NCBI GenBank assembly: GCA_964600615.1
Contig: CAZRJK010000008.1
Span: 32-64,031 of the forward strand
Source of the DNA: an uncultured Muribaculaceae bacterium
Lineage (GTDB): Bacteria; Bacillota_I; Bacilli_A; RF39; UBA660
Direction: 5' to 3'
Length of the DNA: 64,000 nucleotides
In this document: positions 4,193-37,757 of the stretch, piece by piece
Numbering within the stretch: position 1 is the first letter of the stretch
Layout of the letters: every line of letters begins with the position of its first letter
The notes under the pieces: generated by a model
What the model was told of the DNA's origin: nothing
What the model saw: the letters and a program-made list of their open reading frames with translations, nothing else
Databases searched by the model: none
Program-made: the position numbers and the translations under genes

Positions 4193-7100
4193 ATGATACC
4201 TGTTAAGCCTAAGGATGTTACTTGGACAGATGAACAATGGGAAGTTATATATGAGGATGGTAAAAATATTATTGTATCTGCTGGGGCAGGTTCTGGTAAA
4301 ACTGCTGTTCTTACGGAGAGAGTTATTCGTAAATTGAGAGATGGTGTTCATGTAAATGAATTATTAATTCTTACTTTTACTAAGGCTGCTGCTTCTGAGA
4401 TGGAAGATAGGATTAGGAAAAAAATAAAGAAGATTCCTGAATTAAAGAATGAACTTAATTTACTTAATTCTGCTTATATTACTACTTTTGATAGTTTTGC
4501 TTTATCTGTTGTTAAGAAATATAATTATTTACTTAATGTTAGTGATAATATTTCTATTATTGATAATGGGGTTATTAATATAGAGAAGAATAAGATAATG
4601 GATGAATTGTTTTTAGAGTTATATAAGAGTAAAGATGATAAGTTTCTTAATATGATTAAGTCTTTTTGTGTTAAGGATGATAATGATATTAGGAATTATA
4701 TTATGAATATTAGTGATAAGTTAGATTTGTTATCTAATAAATATGAATATTTAAATAATTATATGGGTAATTATTATTGTGATGAATATGTAGATGATTG
4801 TGTTAATAAATATATATCTATTATAGATAATAAGATTAATTTAATTCGGGATATTGTTACTGATATTAGTTATATTGATAGTGATTTTAGTTCTAAATTA
4901 AATGATAGTTTATTAGTGTTATATAATTATTCTAATTATGATGATTTGGTTACGAGACTTAATGTTAAATTACCTATAGTTCCTAGGGGTAGTAGTGATG
5001 AATTAAAAGAATTAAAGGCTTCTATTAGTGATTGTATTAAAGATATTAAATCTTTATGTTGCTATGATAGTGTTTCTGAGATTAAAGATTATATATATAA
5101 TACTAAGGATATAGTGGAAGTTATTGTTAAGATAATTTTAGAGTTTAGTAAGAGAGTTTATAGTTATAAGAAAAGATATAATAGTTATGAATTTAATGAT
5201 ATTGCTATTATGGCTATTGATGTTGTTAAGAATAATAAAGATGTTAGAGAAGAGTTGTTAAATAATTTTAAAGAGATAATGATTGATGAATATCAGGATA
5301 CTAATGATTTGCAAGAAGAATTTATTTCAATGATTAGTAATCATAATGTATATATGGTTGGTGATATTAAGCAGTCTATTTATAGATTTAGAAATGCTAA
5401 TCCTTATATATTTAAAAATAAATATGATAAATATAGTGTTAGTGATATTGATAGAAAGATAGATTTGAATAAGAATTTTAGGTCTAGAAGTGAAGTAATT
5501 AATAATATTAATACGATGTTTAATTTAATTATGAGTGATAATATAGGGGGAGCTGATTATTTAGCTAGTCATCAGATGATATTTGGAAATAATGCTTATA
5601 ATAAAGAGTCTGTTAAACATTCTAATGATATGGATATATATTGCTATAATTATGATAAGGATAGTATTTATAGTAAGGAAGAGATAGAAGCTTTTATTAT
5701 AGCACGTGATATATTAGATAAATATAATAATAAGTATCAGGTATTTGATAAAGATGAGGGTGTTTTAAGAGATATTAAATATAGTGATTTTTCTATAATA
5801 ATGGATAGATCTAGTAGTTTTGATTTATATAAGAGAGTATTTTCTTATTTTGGTATTCCGGTTAGTATCTTTAAATCTGAAAAGATGAATGATAATGATG
5901 ATGTTAATGTTATTAGGAATTTAATTAGATTTATTATTAAGATTAGAGATAAGGAATATGATGTAGAATTTAGATATTTGTTTATTAGTATTATGAGAAG
6001 TTTTTTATATGATATAGATGATGATGTTATATTTGATTATTTTGTTAATAATAATTTTTATGATAGTAATTTATATAATAAATGTTTAAATATAAGTAAG
6101 AAAATAGATTATATTACTGTTCATGAGCTATTAGATGTTATTGTTAATGAATTTAATTATTATGAGTGTTTAATTACTATAGGTAATATTAATAATAATA
6201 TTATTAAGTTAGATAAGATATATGATTTAATATATAATTTAGAGGGATTAGGATATGATATTAGAGCTTTTTCTTCTTATTTAATGGAAGTTACTAGTAA
6301 TGATTATTCTATGGAATATGATGCTAGTTCTTTAGATAATGATGCGGTTAAGATTATGACTATTCATAAGTCTAAAGGATTAGAATATCCTATATGTTAT
6401 TTTAGTGGTTTATATAAGAAATTTAATATTAGTGATTTAAAAGAAAAGTTTTTATATGATAAAGAGTATGGTATAGTAGTTCCTTATTTTAAAGAAAATA
6501 TGGGGATAGGTGAGACTATATATAAAGATTTAGTTAGAGATAGATATTTAAATGATGAGATAAGTGAGAAGATAAGATTGTTTTATGTGGCTTTAACTAG
6601 AGCTAGAGAAAAGATAATTATGGTTAAACCTTATAGTGATAAGGTTAATGATAATTGTAATTTATCTGATAATATAAAGAGTAATTATAGGTCTTTTGAT
6701 GATATATTAAATTCTATATATTTTAGTATAAAAGATAATTATGTTAATGTAGATATAAATAAATTGGGTTTAACTTATGATTATAAATTAATTAAAGTGG
6801 GTAATTATAAAGATAGTATTGATAAGTGTGATATTAAGTTAGATGTTAAGGAATTAGATATTGATAATGAGATTATTAATTCTAATAAGTTTTCTAAGAA
6901 TGTTAATAAGCTTATTGATAGAGATGAATATAATAATATGTTATTAGGTACTAAGATGCATGAGATATTAGAATTAATAGATTTTAAGAATCCTAATTAT
7001 GATTTAATTGATAATGAGTTTTATAAAGATATTGTGAAAGATTTTTTAAAACAAGATATTGTTAAAGATATAGATAAAGCTAAAATATATAAAGAGTATG

Positions 7101-22900: not shown

Positions 22901-24124
22901 ATGATTAATGATATTTTTAAGGAAGCTTCTAATAAAGTTAGTGATGTTTTTAAATCTATTGAAGAAATTGAGAGATTGAATAGTATTAAGGTTTTAAATG
23001 CTTTTAGGGAATGTAATGTTACTGAAGATTGTTTTAATATGACTACAGGATATGGATATAATGATATTGGTAGAGATACTATTGAAAGGGTATATGCTAA
23101 GATATTTAAGTGTGATGATGCTTTAGTTAGGTGTCAATTTATATCTGGTACGCATGCTATATCTACTTGTTTATGGGCTTGTTTAAGACCTAGAGATATA
23201 ATGTTATCTATTACTGGTAAACCTTATGATACTTTAGATGAAGTTATTGGTATTGTTCCTAATGATAGTTCTTTAATTTCTTTTGGGATTAAGTATATGC
23301 AAGTTGATTTAATTAATGATAAATTTGATTATGATGGTATTAAGGATATTATTACTAATAATAAGATTAAATTAATTGAAATTCAGAGAAGTAAGGGATA
23401 TTCTACTAGAAAAAGTATTGATATTGATGAATTAGAAAAAGTTATTAAATTTATTAAAGGTATTGATAAAGATATAATAATTATGATTGATAATTGTTAT
23501 TGTGAATTTGTTTGTGATAAGGAACCTAATGAAGTAGGTGCTGATATTGTTGTTGGTTCTTTGATTAAAAATTTAGGTGGCGGTCTTGCACCTAATGGGG
23601 GATATATTGTTGGTAAGAGTGATTTAATTGAATTGTGTGCTTCTCGTATTAATGTTGCTGGGGAAGGCAGAGCTGTTGGGCCATCTTTAGGTATTAATAA
23701 GGCTATTTTACAAGGTTTGTTTATGGCTCCTAGTGTAGTGGCTAGTTCTTTAAAAGTGGCTGTTATTACTAGTTATGTGTTAGAGAAGATTGGTTATGAA
23801 GTTGAACCTAGATATGATGATAAGAGGGCTGATATTGTTCAAAATATTATATTTAATGATAAAGATAAGTTAATTAAATATTGTCAGGCTATTCAAGAAT
23901 ATAGTCCTATTGATTCTAATGTTAAGCCTATTCCTTGGGATATGCCTGGATATTCTGATCAGGTTATTATGGCGGCTGGTACTTTTGTACAGGGATCTTC
24001 TATAGAGTTATCTTGTGATGGTCCTTTAAGGAAACCTTATATTGCATATCAACAGGGATCTCTTACTTATAATTATGGTTTAATTGCTGTTATGCATGCG
24101 GTTGAAGAATTGTTGGATAAATAG
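22901..24124 (+). CDS. Methionine gamma-lyase family PLP protein (YnbB / aluminium-resistance family)
   Basis: The overall pattern is typical of the YnbB family (TGYGYNDIGRD, SGTHAI, IQRSKGY). Confidence 0.7.
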   Translation: MINDIFKEASNKVSDVFKSIEEIERLNSIKVLNAFRECNVTEDCFNMTTGYGYNDIGRDTIERVYAKIFKCDDALVRCQFISGTHAISTCLWACLRPRDIMLSITGKPYDTLDEVIGIVPNDSSLISFGIKYMQVDLINDKFDYDGIKDIITNNKIKLIEIQRSKGYSTRKSIDIDELEKVIKFIKGIDKDIIIMIDNCYCEFVCDKEPNEVGADIVVGSLIKNLGGGLAPNGGYIVGKSDLIELCASRINVAGEGRAVGPSLGINKAILQGLFMAPSVVASSLKVAVITSYVLEKIGYEVEPRYDDKRADIVQNIIFNDKDKLIKYCQAIQEYSPIDSNVKPIPWDMPGYSDQVIMAAGTFVQGSSIELSCDGPLRKPYIAYQQGSLTYNYGLIAVMHAVEELLDK

Positions 24125-24194
24125 TTTTTTGTATTGCAATTAATTAATTTATATTATAAAATATATTTATAATAGTTATTAAGGTGGTGGTGAG

Positions 24195-25334
24195 GTGAAT
24201 TTGTTTTTTTTGAATTTACTATCTGATGCGTGTAATGATGTTGGTGTTTTAAGAGTAATTTTATTTTTAAAGACGTTGTTACAGTATGTTTTTACTCTTG
24301 TTCCTGTTGCTGCAGTATTATGGTTGACTATTGATATGACTAAAAATGTTTTTTCGCAGGATGCGGATACACAAAGAAAAAATCTTGGAATGTTTGTAAG
24401 AAGATGTATTTATTTAATTATTGTTTTTTTAATTCCTACTATTGTTAATTTGACTTTATCTTTATTTGCTGAAGATATTGATACTAGTGAATATTCTAAA
24501 TGTATGAATGTTACTTCTGAGAGTATAAAAGTTTTATTAAAAAAGAATAAAGATGAGTGCAATCTTGATAATTACGAATGGGATGAAATTAATGGGCATT
24601 GTGTTTTTGTTGGTGAGAGTAGTGTGTTGCCTGAAGATTTTACGGTTATTGATGTAAATCCTAAAGCGGATGTTACTGAAAGTCCTGGTGGTATAAGGAG
24701 ATTAAATAGATCTTTTCCTAATTCTAAGTCTTCAACAATGATGGAATATACTCAAGGTGATGAAAGATGGGCTTATGATGGTTTTTGTGATGATAATGTA
24801 ACTAATATGGCTAGTTCTGGCTGTGGAGCTGCTGCATTTGCAATGATTGTTACAGGTTATGGTAATGATCCTAATGCGACTCCTAAGACAATTAGGGATT
24901 ATGTATGTAATAATGGTTTACATAGAAATTATGGTTTAGGTACAGATCCAATTCATAGTGAAAAACTTGTTGGCCATTTTGGTATGAAGGCAGAAGTATT
25001 ATGGGAAAGAGTTTATTCGAAAAATTATAGTCAGGAAAGAGCAAATCTAATCAAAGAAGCTGTTGATCAAGGTTATGGTGTTATTATAGATATTCCTAAC
25101 CATTGGGTTGCAGTTGATAAAGGTGGTTGTCCTGCTGATAAGGTTTATTACTATAATCCTAATGAAAAGTGGGAGAATGGTTGTGTTACTATGGAGAAGT
25201 TATGGGATATGACTTGGGATAGGAGAGAAAGATGTACTAATCCTAAACCACCACTTTATAATCCTAATAATTTGGAACAATATTGTGGTTGGAAGTATGC
25301 TTATAAATATTGGCCTGCTGATGATACTTATTAA
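24195..25334 (+). CDS. Membrane protein: conserved N-terminal 2-TM module + C39-like (papain-fold) cysteine peptidase domain
   Basis: The N-terminal ~105 aa align with the N-termini of the 35474 and 36657 products. C39_2-like motifs are QGDERW...SSGCGAAAFAMIV (Cys) and NHWVAVD (His). Confidence 0.75.
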   Translation: MNLFFLNLLSDACNDVGVLRVILFLKTLLQYVFTLVPVAAVLWLTIDMTKNVFSQDADTQRKNLGMFVRRCIYLIIVFLIPTIVNLTLSLFAEDIDTSEYSKCMNVTSESIKVLLKKNKDECNLDNYEWDEINGHCVFVGESSVLPEDFTVIDVNPKADVTESPGGIRRLNRSFPNSKSSTMMEYTQGDERWAYDGFCDDNVTNMASSGCGAAAFAMIVTGYGNDPNATPKTIRDYVCNNGLHRNYGLGTDPIHSEKLVGHFGMKAEVLWERVYSKNYSQERANLIKEAVDQGYGVIIDIPNHWVAVDKGGCPADKVYYYNPNEKWENGCVTMEKLWDMTWDRRERCTNPKPPLYNPNNLEQYCGWKYAYKYWPADDTY

Positions 25335-25355
25335 AATATATAATTGGAGGTATTT

Positions 25356-26090
25356 ATGAAAAAAAATATTTTATTATTGGTAATTTTAGCATTTTTTGTG
25401 ACTGGGTGTGGTTCATCTAAAATGGATGAATATGAGGTTGATTATAATTTAAAGATTAATGATGTTTTTTATGAGAGTATTACTGTAGCTTTACCTAAGG
25501 ATGCTTATGATATTGCTGGTAAGGATTCTAAGAAAAACGAGAATTATAATTCTTTGGAATATTCTTTATTAAAATCAGATATTAATCCTATTTTTTCTAA
25601 TTATGATGAATTATATAGAAAAGAAATAAATAAGTATAATAATATGGTAGAGGTTAATTTAAAATATAATTATCCTGAAAAATATTATGTTTATAATAAT
25701 TTTATTACATCTTGTTTTTCTAATTATGATTTAATAAGTAGTGATGATAATTTTGAGATAAAATTAAGTGGAGCCTTTATATGTGGTAACAAGATAGAAA
25801 AATTGAATATAAGTGTAACTAGTAATTATGATGTTTTAGAATCAAATGGTAAAAAAGATGGTAAAACTTATACTTGGTCTATTGGTAAAAAGGATTTTGA
25901 AAAGATTGATATTGATTATAAGATTTCTAGAAAATATAGTAAGATGGCTAAGGAAGCAGTTAATGGTAAAGGAAATGATAAACGTGCTACTACTATTAGG
26001 AATTTAAGAATTGTGACTTTTGTTATTATGATTATTGTTATTATTGCTTTTTCAGTTAGGTTTTATTTTATGAAAAAAGATTTAGAATAA
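25356..26090 (+). CDS. Lipoprotein with an additional C-terminal TM anchor
   Basis: MKKNILLLVILAFFVTGC lipobox; C-terminal hydrophobic helix VTFVIMIIVIIAFSV. ATG 25356 follows SD ggagg. Confidence 0.75.
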   Translation: MKKNILLLVILAFFVTGCGSSKMDEYEVDYNLKINDVFYESITVALPKDAYDIAGKDSKKNENYNSLEYSLLKSDINPIFSNYDELYRKEINKYNNMVEVNLKYNYPEKYYVYNNFITSCFSNYDLISSDDNFEIKLSGAFICGNKIEKLNISVTSNYDVLESNGKKDGKTYTWSIGKKDFEKIDIDYKISRKYSKMAKEAVNGKGNDKRATTIRNLRIVTFVIMIIVIIAFSVRFYFMKKDLE

Positions 26091-26112
26091 GTTTATGCTT
26101 ATTCTTTTTTCT
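26084..26112 (+). terminator. Rho-independent terminator
   Basis: agaataag / cttattct 8-bp stem followed by a T run. Confidence 0.7.
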
Positions 26113-26161
26113 TGATAATAAATATATAATGCTATATAATATTAATGGAAAAGGTGATATT

Positions 26162-33024: not shown

Positions 33025-33164
33025 AGTTTTCCCCCTTTAAACGTTTTAATATTTTAACATATATGTAACAATTTTGCAAGTGGTGTATTATTTTGACCTT
33101 TATGTTGTAAGTTTGTTTAAACTATGGTATACTAATCAATGGTAATATGGTAGGAGGTATGTAT

Positions 33165-34142
33165 ATGTTTTGTCCTAAATGTGGTGAGCATAATGCTGAG
33201 GGGTCTGGTTTTTGTACTAAGTGTGGCAATAATCTTAGTAATGTTTTAAATAATGAATCTGTTCAAAATGTAGATTCTACTAATTTGGCAACTGATAATG
33301 ATAATTCTAGTGTTAGTAGTGAACCTATACAAAGTAATGTTAATCATGATATGAATGATAACAAGAAATCTAATCTTATACCAATTATTGTTATAGTTTT
33401 AGTTGTTGCTGCTGGTATTTTTTTTGGTATTAGTAAATTAGTGAAAAAAGATAATTCTAGTACTAACAGTGATATGAAGCAAAATACTAGTAGTGAGGTT
33501 GATACTAATGTAGATAATGATAGTTCTAATAGTAATCAATCTACTATTGATGGTTCTACTGATACGACTTATGATAAAAATGGTGACTTTTTAATGTCTG
33601 TTGAGGATGTTTTTTCTATTTCTGGAAAAGGAACTGTTGCTACTGGTAGAGTTTTGAGGGGAACTGTTAAGGTTGGCGATAAGGTTCAAGTTATTGGGCT
33701 TGATCATGAAATTATAACTACTGAAGTTGTAGATATACAAGCTTTTAGGCAATCTATGGAATATGCGGATGCTGGTAATGATGCTGGTTTATATTTGAAA
33801 GATGTTGAAAGAGATGATGTTGTAAGAGGGCAAGTTCTTGCTAAACCTAATTCGATTAAAGCTTATAAAAAGTTTGATGCAGATATATATTTTTATTCTA
33901 CTAAGGAAGGTGGTAGGGCTACAGCATTTTTTGCTAATTATAGACCACAATTTTGTTTTAGAACGGCTGTGATTGCTGGTGGCATTACTTTACCTAGTGG
34001 TGTTGAAATGGTAAATCCTGGAACTAATATAAAATTAACAGTAGAATTAGAAGTTGATGTTGCTATGGAAGTTGGAGATATATTTGATGTTAGAGATACT
34101 GGTAGAACCGCTGGCAAAGGTACTGTTACAAAGATATATTAA
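33165..34142 (+). CDS. Zinc-ribbon + single TM + EF-Tu domain II/III protein (no GTPase domain)
   Basis: N-terminal CPKCG...CTKCG, [20 protein letters not shown], and an S/N/D-rich linker. The C-terminal ~185 aa are collinear with EF-Tu domains II-III ([22 protein letters not shown]...RGQVLAKP...YRPQFCFRT...[12 protein letters not shown]). Start is at ATG 33165, 7 nt after AGGAGG. Confidence 0.85.
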   Translation: [325 protein letters not shown]

Positions 34143-35473: not shown

Positions 35474-36592
35474 ATGTTAGTTGGTATTTGTGAGAATCCT
35501 TTTGTTTTGAAAATTTTATTATTTATTGGGAAGCTTGTTAAGATTTGTTATTTGGTTATTCCTATTGGATTAGTAATTTTTTTTAGTTTTGATTTTTTTA
35601 AAGGAATTATTAATCAGGAAGAAGCTGATAAACAAATTGTTTTTTCATTGAAAAAAATAATTAATGTTGTTGCTTTGTTTTTGGTTCCTACATTTGTTAG
35701 TATTTTTATGAAATTTATTAGTAATATAGAATTTTTAGATATTAATTATAAAACTTGTTTAGCTAATACTTCTAATATTACTTATTATGAGGAAAAGTAT
35801 GAATCTTTAATTAAATTAGAAGAAGAAAAAAGAGCAGAAGAAATAGAAAAGCAATTAGCCGATTATGAGTATTATAAAACACTTGATAGAAGGAAAAAAA
35901 TGTTTGTTAAATATAATGAGAAGAAAGATAACAATGGTGGAAATAATACTGGAGGCAATACTTATGATCCTAGTGCTGTTTTTACTGGACAAACATATAG
36001 TTTAAGTGCTGATGAATTAAAAAACATAACTGCTGTATGTATTGGTGAACAGGGAGCATATGTTGATGGTGTTTCTTCGGAAGCTTCTTTTATGGCTAAT
36101 ACTTATGAAGCTAAATATTCTAATAAATTTTCAACGATTTCAAGCTGGGTACTTGATACTGGGGATGGACATTATTTTGATACTCGTTCTTATGAAAATG
36201 GTTTACCCCAAGTTACTGATGAGTTGATTAATGCGGTTAAAGAAGTTTTAGTTAATGGTAATAGGACTTTACCTTTATATGTTGATGATCATGATTGTTG
36301 GTTTTGTTCTGATCATTATGATAGGAATCATAATCCACTTTATTGCCATAATGGTAATAAGGGTGATATATGTTATTTAAATAATGGTGGTTCTGATTTA
36401 TCTAGTAAGGATGAGATTACTAATAGAGATAATTATATAAAGGATAAGACTAAAATATATACTTATTATAAGCAAGATCATAGTGATGATTTGGATAAGT
36501 ACTTTATTTTTTATGCTTGGGCTAGACCTACTACGAAGGGTGGGGATCCTTTTGGGTATACTGAAGATACTTATAAGCGTATAAATGGTTAG
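35474..36592 (+). CDS. Membrane protein: conserved N-terminal 2-TM module + coiled linker + Cys/His-rich C-terminal domain (paralog A)
   Basis: Same N-terminal module as the 24195 product. The C-terminal domain has GEQG...EASFMANTYE and LVNGNRTLPLYVDDHDCWFC motifs shared with paralog B. Confidence 0.8.
   Translation: MLVGICENPFVLKILLFIGKLVKICYLVIPIGLVIFFSFDFFKGIINQEEADKQIVFSLKKIINVVALFLVPTFVSIFMKFISNIEFLDINYKTCLANTSNITYYEEKYESLIKLEEEKRAEEIEKQLADYEYYKTLDRRKKMFVKYNEKKDNNGGNNTGGNTYDPSAVFTGQTYSLSADELKNITAVCIGEQGAYVDGVSSEASFMANTYEAKYSNKFSTISSWVLDTGDGHYFDTRSYENGLPQVTDELINAVKEVLVNGNRTLPLYVDDHDCWFCSDHYDRNHNPLYCHNGNKGDICYLNNGGSDLSSKDEITNRDNYIKDKTKIYTYYKQDHSDDLDKYFIFYAWARPTTKGGDPFGYTEDTYKRING
35822..35986 (+). 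repeat. Near-identical block shared with 37009-37173 (linker region of the tandem paralogs)
   Basis: Hand alignment gives roughly 155/165 identical, including a 68-nt perfect run (gattatgagtattataaaacacttgatagaaggaaaaaaatgtttgttaaatataatgagaagaaaga). The flanking parts of the genes are clearly more diverged. Confidence 0.85.
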
Positions 36593-36656: not shown

Positions 36657-37757
36657 ATGATTGTTGGTGCTTGTGAAAATCCTTTTGTTTTAAAGATTTT
36701 GTTATTTATGGGAAAAATTGTTGAGGTTTGTTATTTGATTATTCCTATTGGTTTGATTCTTTTTATGAGTATTGATTTTTTTAAGGCAATTATTAATAAA
36801 GAAGAAGAAGGAACTAAGAATGTTATTTTTTCTTTTAAGAGAATTGTTAACGTTGTTGCTTTATTTTTGGTTCCTACTTTTATAAGCTTTTTTATGGATT
36901 TTGTTAGTAATTTAGATTTGTTTAATGGAGATTATGCTTCTTGTTTAGCTAATACTTCTAGTGTTACTTATTATCAAGAGAAGTATGATGCCTTGGTTAA
37001 ACAAGAGGAAGAAAAAAGAGCAAAAGAGATAGAAAAGCAATTAGCTGATTATGAGTATTATAAAACACTTGATAGAAGGAAAAAAATGTTTGTTAAATAT
37101 AATGAGAAGAAAGACAACGATGGTGGCAATAATACTGGAGGCAATACTTATAATCCTGATGCTGTTTTTACGGGCCAAACTTATAATTTAACTGATGAAC
37201 AGGTAAAGAGATTAGCTGCTATATGTTATGGTGAAAAAGGAAATAATGTAAAGGCAGTAGCTGCAGAGGCTACAATGATGGCCAATATATACGAGGATCG
37301 TGGGAATAAGAATTATTCTTTATATGATTGGGCTCTTCTACCAGTTGGCGATGGTGGTTGGTATGCTTCAAGCAGTAGGGATAGTAGTAATATAGCTAAA
37401 GTTACTGATGAGTTATTTAATGCGGTTAAAGATGTTTTAGTTAATGGTAATAGGACTTTGCCTTTATATATAGATGATCATGATTGTTTGTTTTGCGATG
37501 ATTCCACTTGTTCAAATGGTAATAGGGGCGATGTATGTTATTTAGATACTAATGGGACTATTTTTTCTGATGAATCTCAATTAAAGGATAGATATAATTC
37601 AACTATCTATATTCCTAATAAGACAAAAGTATATACTCTTAGTAAGTTGAGAAATAGTGTTGCTAGTGAGCGATATTTTGTATTTTATACTTTTGTATCT
37701 GATAATAGTGGTCCTGTTGGGTATACTGAGAAGAGTTATAAAAGAGTAAATGGTTAG
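36657..37757 (+). CDS. Membrane protein, tandem paralog B of the 35474 gene
   Basis: Collinear with paralog A over its whole length; similar promoter/SD context (tataat...gtgagggata). Confidence 0.8.
   Translation: MIVGACENPFVLKILLFMGKIVEVCYLIIPIGLILFMSIDFFKAIINKEEEGTKNVIFSFKRIVNVVALFLVPTFISFFMDFVSNLDLFNGDYASCLANTSSVTYYQEKYDALVKQEEEKRAKEIEKQLADYEYYKTLDRRKKMFVKYNEKKDNDGGNNTGGNTYNPDAVFTGQTYNLTDEQVKRLAAICYGEKGNNVKAVAAEATMMANIYEDRGNKNYSLYDWALLPVGDGGWYASSSRDSSNIAKVTDELFNAVKDVLVNGNRTLPLYIDDHDCLFCDDSTCSNGNRGDVCYLDTNGTIFSDESQLKDRYNSTIYIPNKTKVYTLSKLRNSVASERYFVFYTFVSDNSGPVGYTEKSYKRVNG
37009..37173 (+). repeat. Second copy of the near-identical paralog block (see 35822-35986)
   Basis: Direct comparison of the two gene sequences. 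Confidence 0.85.

Follow-up and report, generated by a model that had tools for sequence, protein, structure and literature searches.

Type IV secretion systems (T4SSs) of Gram-positive bacteria are, as far as we know, generally said to be without VirB2 pilins. Profiles of PF18895 and TrbC/VirB2 have been used to find VirB2-like pilins in the Patescibacteria (PMC12102498), and a recent (2025) review called the T4SS of that group unique among monoderms for its pilus-making potential (PMC12857230). The present analysis concerns a pair of genes at positions 24195 to 26090 of a 64,000-nucleotide stretch of DNA, hereafter the window, from an uncultured bacterium of a Bacilli family with reduced genomes. 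It is, in our judgement, somewhat probable that the pair forms an accessory module of a secretion or pilus system, consisting of a surface-tethered C39-like peptidase on a T4SS-pilin hairpin and an LppM-like membrane partner.

Wall hydrolases of the PrgK, CwlT and TcpG type have a single transmembrane (TM) segment or a lipid anchor, not a pilin hairpin. They are the VirB1-type enzymes of Gram-positive T4SSs, with PrgK belonging to pCF10, CwlT to ICEBs1, and TcpG to pCW3 (PMC12102498). The lipoprotein LppM has been described with a signal peptide, a lipobox and a C-terminal TM segment (PMC5217060). The source genome of the window (G000) comprises 1.39 Mb on 54 contigs, is approximately 88% complete, and has a G+C content of approximately 25-30%; the window is part of its contig C8. 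The two genes of the pair are as follows:

24195..25334, forward strand: gene for a 379-amino acid (aa) fusion of a pilin-type hairpin and a C39-like peptidase, with a GTG start and the Shine-Dalgarno (SD) sequence GGTGGTG
25356..26090, forward strand: gene for a 244-aa LppM-like lipoprotein, with the SD sequence GGAGG, a signal peptide, a lipobox and a C-terminal TM helix

A Hairpin Module Shared by Eight Proteins

An earlier, sequence-only reading of this DNA had proposed that the N-terminus of the 24195 product is a recurrent module of two TM segments, shared with two other proteins of the window and joined in each to a different C-terminal domain. This proposal is borne out. The 24195 product matches that of the gene at 35474 with an E value of 8e-11 and that of the gene at 36657 with 6e-13 (BLASTP), both matches being limited to residues 8-108, and the C-terminal domains of the paralogs do differ (C39-like, SleB-like, glucosaminidase, and others). 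Eight copies of the module were found in the genome, three in the window and five elsewhere:

24195..24509, forward strand: VirB2-like hairpin module, residues 1-105 of the 24195 product, identified by profile, BLASTP, composition and AlphaFold2 (AF2) model
35474..36592, forward strand: paralog, hairpin module and a SleB-like, Cys/His-rich domain, identified by BLASTP and profile
36657..37757, forward strand: paralog, tandem copy of the 35474 gene, its product 58% identical to the 35474 product over the full length
Contig C22: 182 aa, module and coiled coil
Contig C3: 401 aa, module, coiled coil and glucosaminidase (Pfam E 5.2e-13)
Contig C12: 179 aa, module and Cys-rich tail
Contig C5: 105 aa, module alone
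Contig C14: 402 aa, signal peptide, ectodomain and C-terminal module

Segments that span membranes can yield spurious low-complexity matches in AT-rich genomes, and hence a chance or compositional likeness of hydrophobic stretches, with no real family behind it, has to be considered. A hidden Markov model (HMM) built from 17 foreign free-standing members only was searched against the 3,792 six-frame open reading frames (ORFs) of the genome. It recovered exactly the eight paralogs, with E values of 1e-16 to 1e-31 (1.9e-29 for the 24195 product), and the best non-paralog ORF stood at 0.16. The likeness thus survives a formal significance test, and the separation of paralogs from the next ORF refutes an origin by chance; the invariant polar and Cys positions and the size of the family, both described below, speak against it as well, and its probability is negligible.

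A profile of the eight paralogs, searched against 1.84 billion metagenome cluster representatives, retrieved 9168 of them at E<=1e-3 and 3363 at E<=1e-10. The module stands at the N-terminus in 143 of the 149 top representatives, approximately 18 of which are module-only proteins of 97-137 aa. Across these 149 sequences Cys13, Pro37 and Asp47 are invariant and Lys50, Arg70, Phe78 and Cys103 nearly so, in agreement with the motif positions listed from the sequence alone. The module is found alone or as part of fusions; most of the paralogs and most of the metagenomic relatives bear wall-hydrolase domains. The census of fusion partners that the sequence-only reading had proposed gave, by Pfam scan of the same representatives, CHAP (11 members), GDSL lipase/esterase (9 and 6 members), C39_2 (8 members, E down to 1.1e-11), M23 (7), Glucosaminidase (4), Lactamase_B and Amidase_5 (2 each), and VanY, Amidase_3, NlpC/P60, SpoIIP, endolysin-like, C70, PT-HINT and others (1 each).

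Several further observations concern copies of the module. A three-gene block is duplicated at C22:12351-15734 and C3:52369-56482 (reverse strand). Its products are a hairpin protein, to which glucosaminidase is joined in C3 but not in C22, then a TM protein of 414 aa, and lastly one of 496-512 aa that resembles, as judged by eye, an Ig-like domain joined to a polysaccharide deacetylase; the middle gene of the C3 block is broken into two ORFs and is probably a pseudogene. The 1.2-Mb genome of a member of another genus of the same family (G192) has 16 copies of the module, and several of these form tandem arrays of fusion proteins 330-555 aa long. A metagenomic protein of 153 aa (P0010) is a near-identical copy of the 24195 product from another assembly, with a frameshift after residue ~116 in the A-run encoding LLKKNK; the cause is an error of assembly or else a homopolymer prone to slippage.

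Affiliation of the Module With T4SS Pilins

The only recurrent Pfam match on the module is T4SS_pilin (PF18895). It was obtained with 24 of the 149 representatives at E<=1e-3 and with 7 of the 18 free-standing members, and the best match (E 7.3e-8) corresponds by extrapolation to approximately 33 bits, above the gathering cut-off of 26.6 bits. Below this cut-off are the free 105-aa copy of the genome (22.3 bits, E 1.4e-4) and the copy on contig C14 (21.9 bits, E 1.9e-4). NCBIfam gave sub-threshold hints only, to a Mycoplasma family of "pilin-like conjugal transfer protein" from integrative and conjugative elements (ICEs) and to its neighbours. At the level of remote homology, these profile matches indicate that the module is a divergent branch of the VirB2-like T4SS_pilin family. 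The sequence-only reading had not recognised the module as any known family; together with the tie to a VirB4/VirB6 operon described below, the Pfam matches place it with a known T4SS component, and the idea of an unknown module falls.

The hairpin has the following parts:

24231-24233, forward strand: Cys13, in an acidic N-terminal tail
Within 24195..24509, forward strand: helix and TM1 (residues ~17-45), basic loop (46-70, with five Lys/Arg) and TM2 (71-92)
24501-24503, forward strand: Cys103, in an acidic segment after TM2

Two hydrophobic helices joined by a short basic loop, as in T4SS_pilin proteins, are thus present, and the AF2 model shows them as a long helical hairpin (residues 16-53 and 57-91). 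That both ends lie outside, as would befit such a pilin, is a prediction. Since the five basic residues are in the loop and both flanks are acidic, and since some relatives bear a cleavable signal peptide or an entire ectodomain ahead of the hairpin, we infer that both ends of the hairpin face outward and that the peptidase is extracellular. Cys13 and Cys103 would then come together on the outer face, where they probably form a disulfide clamp.

Other identities for the module were rejected. A holin is excluded by the length of 379 aa, the chromosomal housekeeping surroundings and the lack of phage genes nearby, and a type VII secretion component and a simple signal anchor were dropped on size, context and the strict conservation of the hairpin sequence. 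Searches of PDB sequences with profiles of the peptidase fusion and of the lipoprotein gave nothing useful, and the free pilin had no match at E<=1 among 72,556 plasmids (tblastn). On plasmid pBMB67 of Bacillus thuringiensis (L025, positions 6661-7041), a 126-aa hypothetical protein with a signal peptide and two TM segments is encoded directly before TrbL/VirB6, PrgI and VirB4 genes, in the same position as the pilin-like genes described here, and a SAF-domain (CpaB-like) gene lies on the same stretch of plasmid; homology of this protein with the module was rejected (hhalign E 0.15, prob 0.4).

A Conserved Chromosomal T4SS Operon

The module copy on contig C14 is encoded by the first gene of a T4SS operon:

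C14:12931-21139, reverse strand: seven genes between asnS, a penicillin-binding protein gene and polC on one side and suf genes on the other
Gene 1: hairpin-bearing protein, 402 aa (PF18895 E 1.9e-4)
Gene 2: VirB6, 726 aa (weak TrbL match)
Gene 3: VirB3-like protein, 107 aa (by size and position only, with no Pfam or NCBIfam match)
Gene 4: N-terminal part of a Mycoplasma-type VirB4, 194 aa (E 1.1e-15)
Gene 5: VirB4, 595 aa (P-loop_TraG, AAA_10)
Gene 6: VirB1-like hydrolase, 482 aa (NlpC/P60 and CHAP)
Gene 7: lipoprotein with a C-terminal TM segment, 228 aa (profile of the 25356 lipoprotein family, E 2.2e-8)

Neither a relaxase nor an integrase gene was found near this operon. Its VirB4 is at most 29% identical to known Gram-positive plasmid VirB4s, and hence no known conjugative plasmid carries this T4SS. 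Within the family, 24 of 25 genomes have an ortholog of this VirB4 (60-92% identical). Of the genomes from 16 other families, only G030 and G037 have one, and these two are exactly the outside genomes that have the module. A class-wide even sample of 201 genomes gave the module in 23, namely 21 of the family (20 genera, 1-16 copies each) and the same two outsiders. A module gene lies up to approximately 6 kb upstream of the VirB4 gene and on the same strand in 17 genomes, and an LppM-like lipoprotein gene lies 2-3.4 kb downstream of it in 12 genomes of at least five genera. The hairpin family is inherited together with a highly conserved chromosomal VirB6-VirB3-VirB4 operon. The neighbourhood of VirB4, VirB6 and VirB3 genes that is typical of T4SS_pilin is therefore found for the family, not for the 24195 gene itself.

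The outside genome G037, of another family, has a contiguous cluster (L018, C76:7000-20000) of TadB/TadC/TadE/TadZ-like genes, two free pilins, VirB6, VirB3, VirB4, an M23+DPBB hydrolase and VirD4. This arrangement suggests an ancestral composite Tad/T4SS locus that would have been split in the genome of the window, and it would explain the free 105-aa pilin found at the end of a Tad-like locus on contig C5.

The system resembles that of the Patescibacteria, in which PF18895 pilins are encoded beside virB4/virB6 (PMC12102498; PMC12857230), in that its hairpin consists of two hydrophobic helices and a short basic loop. Each small genome has several divergent paralogs, with free copies or arrays beside monoderm (FATA-like) VirB6/VirB3/VirB4 genes, and this is a further common trait, as is a chromosomal, relaxase-poor and highly conserved T4SS in a reduced genome. 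Unlike in the Patescibacteria, the system belongs to a Bacilli family, extracellular enzyme domains of 100-400 aa are attached to most copies, most copies are dispersed from the T4SS operon, two invariant Cys residues flank the hairpin, and the copies of the genome remain below the Pfam cut-off.

A second likeness is to the Mbov_0395 family of Mycoplasma ICEs and its neighbours (NF045849, NF045848, NF045889, NF045975): the 194-aa operon protein matches the N-terminal part of their VirB4 (E 1.1e-15), and the free hairpins match the pilin-like and adjacent TM families weakly (E 7e-4 to 5e-3, far below the cut-offs). The Mycoplasma proteins belong to mobile ICEs, whereas the system described here is chromosomal and vertically inherited. 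We know of no enzyme fusions among the pilin-like proteins of Mycoplasma ICEs.

The C39-Like Peptidase Domain

C-terminal to the hairpin, the 24195 product consists of a stalk, a linker and the peptidase domain:

24510..24614, forward strand: stalk, residues 106-140, a helix and a Cys122-Cys136 beta-hairpin with a YEWD motif (conservation, AF2 model)
24615..24734, forward strand: presumably flexible linker, residues 141-180, poorly conserved and of low model confidence
24735..25331, forward strand: predicted papain-fold C39-like cysteine peptidase domain, residues 181-379 (Pfam, AF2, Foldseek, conservation)
24753-24755, forward strand: Gln187
24822-24824, forward strand: Cys210, in SGCG
25101-25103, forward strand: His303

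The AF2 model, made from nine sequences, has a mean predicted local distance difference test (pLDDT) score of 76, and residues 181-379 form a confident alpha/beta domain. This domain matches the C39 peptidase domain of ComA (3k8u, 5xe8) in a Foldseek search of the PDB (prob 1.0, TMt 0.64-0.67), and it also matches viral-tegument-like deubiquitinases, which are papain-like (E 2.4e-4). The Pfam C39_2 profile (PF13529) scored 16.2 bits (E 0.017), below its gathering cut-off of 24 bits; the orthologs P0003 and P0004 have precomputed PF13529 matches. Gln187, Cys210 and His303 are invariant in nine orthologs, and candidates for the third catalytic residue are Asp315 and Asp308, an acidic residue being conserved at 315. 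Consequently, the C39_2-type papain-like domain with the Cys and His named from the sequence alone is upheld, and residues 181-379 are predicted to be a papain-fold, C39-like cysteine peptidase. As a putative function, it would cut peptide bonds of the cell wall or of surface proteins.

The stalk strands of the model comprise residues 127-130 and 135-138, and Cys122, Tyr127, Glu128, Trp129, Asp130, Cys136 and Gly140 are invariant. The YEWD motif recurs in 7 of the 149 representatives with differing C-terminal domains (M23, CHAP, C39). Because the unit of hairpin and YEWD stalk also precedes M23 and CHAP domains in other organisms, catalytic domains appear to be swapped onto a constant N-terminal part. 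The linker has a mean pairwise identity of 24%, versus 52-58% elsewhere in the protein, and its pLDDT falls below 50 at residues 148-166.

As in the peptidases C39 and C39_2 (ComA, PCAT1; PF03412, PF13529), the fold of the domain is papain-like, and Gln, Cys, His and an acidic residue follow one another as expected. Unlike the classical C39 peptidases, it is outside an ABC transporter, is predicted to be extracellular, contains several further conserved Cys residues, and scores below the Pfam cut-off. That its closest solved structures are the C39 domains of ComA and PCAT1 would accord with a protease that processes leader peptides, cutting the double-glycine-type leaders of a secreted peptide or of the Tad/Flp-like pilins of this genome. 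Such a role is very unlikely. Prepilin and double-glycine leader cleavage occurs at the cytoplasmic face, whereas this domain is C-terminal and predicted to be outside; neither an ABC transporter domain or gene nor a peptide gene was found at or beside 24195; and most species in which the Tad-like and T4SS genes are retained lack this gene.

No sequence relation was found between the C39-like domain and the hydrolase of the T4SS operon. The 24195 product resembles the VirB1-type hydrolases, of which the operon encodes one (NlpC/P60 and CHAP), as a membrane-anchored extracellular enzyme that would cut the wall and is associated with a monoderm T4SS; it differs from them in its C39-like domain and its location elsewhere in the chromosome. 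A distant C39-like copy (SGCG..GGHY; hhalign E 1.6e-4 to the 24195 family) occurs in a 247-aa protein without a hairpin, encoded at C5:38926-39669 on the reverse strand, approximately 3 kb upstream of the Tad-like locus.

The LppM-Like Lipoprotein

The second gene of the pair encodes a protein with two membrane attachments:

25407-25409, forward strand: Cys18 of the lipobox VTGC
Within 25356..26090, forward strand: beta-rich ectodomain, residues ~25-200 (AF2)
25992-26066, forward strand: C-terminal TM helix, residues ~213-237

Both the lipobox Cys and the C-terminal helix are kept in 13 homologs, as expected from the sequence-only description of a lipoprotein with a second anchor. Its AF2 model (pLDDT 81.5) contains a beta-rich domain. 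The best Foldseek match of this domain, and the only strong one, is to LppM of M. tuberculosis (2NC8), with E 1.3e-5, prob 1.0 and TMt 0.59; those that follow are weaker by a factor of more than 100. The Pfam LppM profile (PF21946) gave 14.1 and 17.1 bits (E 0.007-0.056) in two of five orthologs scanned, below its gathering cut-off of 27 bits. On the evidence of the model, the lipoprotein has the fold and topology of LppM; the double anchoring, which had been considered odd, has a direct precedent in that protein (PMC5217060). With LppM (Rv2171) it has in common the signal peptide and lipobox, the beta-rich domain and the C-terminal TM helix. It differs in its marginal sequence likeness, its phylum, and its linkage to genes of the T4SS and of hairpin hydrolases, for which no parallel has been described in LppM.

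Genes for lipoproteins of this kind occur in three contexts. In L012, L013 and L014 they directly follow hairpin-C39 genes, even though what lies further upstream is not the same; in L015 and L016 they precede hairpin-DPBB and hairpin-glucosaminidase-like genes or lie between them; and in the T4SS operon they come last, behind the NlpC/P60 hydrolase gene. That one lipoprotein fold adjoins three enzyme folds argues for a partner of general use (a dock, a scaffold or a regulator, for instance) rather than a fold-specific immunity protein. Of the sequence-only suggestion of a cognate partner, inhibitor or immunity protein, the partner gene therefore stands and the specific inhibitor or immunity role is weakened. 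A relation of the lipoprotein to the small membrane protein encoded after 36657 was considered and not found.

These contexts also bear on the proposal that the pair is a contact-dependent antibacterial effector with its immunity protein. The hairpin would then be the delivery part of wall-degrading effectors exported by the T4SS, functionally akin to the bacteria-killing T4SS effectors of Xanthomonas with their lipoprotein immunity partners, and the 25356 lipoprotein would protect the producer. Repertoires of GDSL lipases and wall hydrolases are typical of interbacterial effectors. A constant N-terminal hairpin and stalk with swapped C-terminal enzymes, one relative with a pretoxin-HINT domain, the variable copy number (1-16 per genome), the patchy distribution of the C39 pair and a T4SS without a nearby relaxase gene all agree with this proposal. 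It is nevertheless improbable. The association of the same LppM-like fold with three unrelated enzyme folds (C39-like, DPBB, NlpC/P60) and with the end of the T4SS operon is unlike fold-specific immunity, no orphan C39-type lipoprotein was found in 15 genomes of the genus without the peptidase, and a hairpin of two TM segments is integral to the membrane and is not known as a signal for translocation.

Genomic Setting and Distribution of the Pair

The N-terminus of the 24195 product (MNLFFL..) agrees with those of the orthologs P0007 and P0009 in a start-site check, and the true start of the lipoprotein gene is the ATG at 25356 behind GGAGG, not the TTG at 25344. Promoter-like sites flank the pair:

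24134..24162, forward strand: candidate sigma-70-type promoter TTGCAA-17-TAAAAT, with 9/12 consensus matches, in the 70-nt gap 5' of 24195
26112..26140, forward strand: strong promoter-like site TTGATA-17-TATAAT of the formate-tetrahydrofolate ligase (FTHFS) gene, with 11/12 consensus matches

The upstream candidate is weak evidence, comparable sites being common in the AT-rich DNA here. No terminator-like sites were found between positions 23900 and 26300. Given the 21-nt spacing of the genes, the lack of such a site between them and the near-consensus promoter of the FTHFS gene itself, the pair looks like a two-gene unit that ends at that promoter. Elsewhere in the window (33147-34142, forward strand), there is a 331-aa protein in which a zinc ribbon at the N-terminus and a TM segment occur together with domains 2 and 3 of EF-Tu (GTP_EFTU_D3 E 2.7e-24, D2 E 1.2e-13), the GTPase domain being absent; it is an unusual membrane-anchored EF-Tu fragment.

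Close orthologs of the peptidase are 43-53% identical and those of the lipoprotein 56-65% identical, and they share the context alaS ... Cse60, DUF378, YdcC/GerS-like, Met-gamma-lyase, the pair, FTHFS, HemN-like and gltX. Among the 18 species of the genus, three have the pair (G000, G015, G003), always directly upstream of the FTHFS gene; the other species have unrelated genes at this site. With so few of the species possessing it, the pair is accessory and not a core part of the T4SS.

This setting is relevant to the possibility that the hairpin, derived from a T4SS pilin, now serves only as an anchor with both termini outside and as an export signal for ordinary autolysins, with no present role in a T4SS; the 24195 peptidase would then be a housekeeping or sporulation enzyme of wall remodelling with a regulatory lipoprotein. 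The enzymes joined to the hairpin make up the customary set of autolysins in Firmicutes (CHAP, M23, glucosaminidase, amidases, VanY, SpoIIP, SleB-like), the genes are dispersed among housekeeping genes with synteny kept in close relatives, and sporulation genes (Cse60 and the GerS/YdcC-like lipoprotein) are nearby. A mere anchor, however, would not preserve Pro37, Asp47, Lys50, Arg70, Phe78 and both Cys residues in free and fused members alike. The module also co-occurs strictly with one VirB4 lineage, the partner lipoprotein is paralogous to a gene of the T4SS operon, and the patchy distribution of the C39 pair is ill-suited to a housekeeping role. We regard this anchor-only function as possible, if on the unlikely side.

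Proposed Function

Under the reading that we favour, that of an accessory module of a chromosomal T4SS/pilus system, the hairpin would insert into the cytoplasmic membrane with both ends outside, clamped on the outer face by a Cys13-Cys103 disulfide, and place the peptidase on the wall side. Tethered there and possibly incorporated into a pilus, the peptidase would cleave peptide bonds of the cell wall or of surface proteins, and the LppM-like lipoprotein may position or restrain it, as the paralogs would for other hydrolases. The 24195 product is one of the eight hairpin paralogs, and the 25356 lipoprotein is a paralog of that of the T4SS operon. As the pair is not beside this operon, a present-day functional link would follow from paralogy and co-distribution only.

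Five points weigh against this reading. The 24195 product itself has no PF18895 match and no copy of the genome reaches the cut-off (best 22.3 versus 26.6 bits), so that its membership in the family is transitive, through other members that match. Confinement to 3 of 18 species marks the pair as no core part of the machine, and it stands among housekeeping genes, apart from the operon. The subunits of a VirB2-type filament may not be able to pack if a pilin bears a domain of 270 aa. Finally, C39_2-type domains are, to our knowledge, not established wall hydrolases.

A bolder version, which we hold to be doubtful, is that a non-conjugative chromosomal T4SS, ancestrally joined to a Tad-like module, builds a VirB2-type pilus in which the fusions of hairpin and enzyme are minor pilins and the LppM-like proteins are their docks. 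Wall-cutting enzymes would then decorate the filament or be handed over, and would breach the wall of the cell itself, of a partner or of prey; the T4SS would be kept for this by a whole family of 0.8-1.5 Mb Bacilli with a Gram-positive envelope. Were this so, a trait that the 2025 review regards as unique to the Patescibacteria among monoderms would be extended to the Firmicutes, and these would be the first enzyme-bearing pilins of conjugative type.

For the family, a VirB2-like pilin is a hallmark of an entire group of reduced-genome Bacilli, in which it has been made the carrier of a toolbox of extracellular enzymes. If the hairpin serves only as an anchor, it would still show clearly how a pilin has been recruited for export and anchoring in general. 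The LppM-like proteins, whose function is poorly understood, gain a conserved genomic context of wall hydrolases and T4SS genes. If the hairpin still works with the T4SS, it would provide a testable model of a monoderm T4SS that crosses peptidoglycan or acts on neighbouring cells, and the family would become a second independent lineage for the non-conjugative T4SSs of host-dependent small bacteria.

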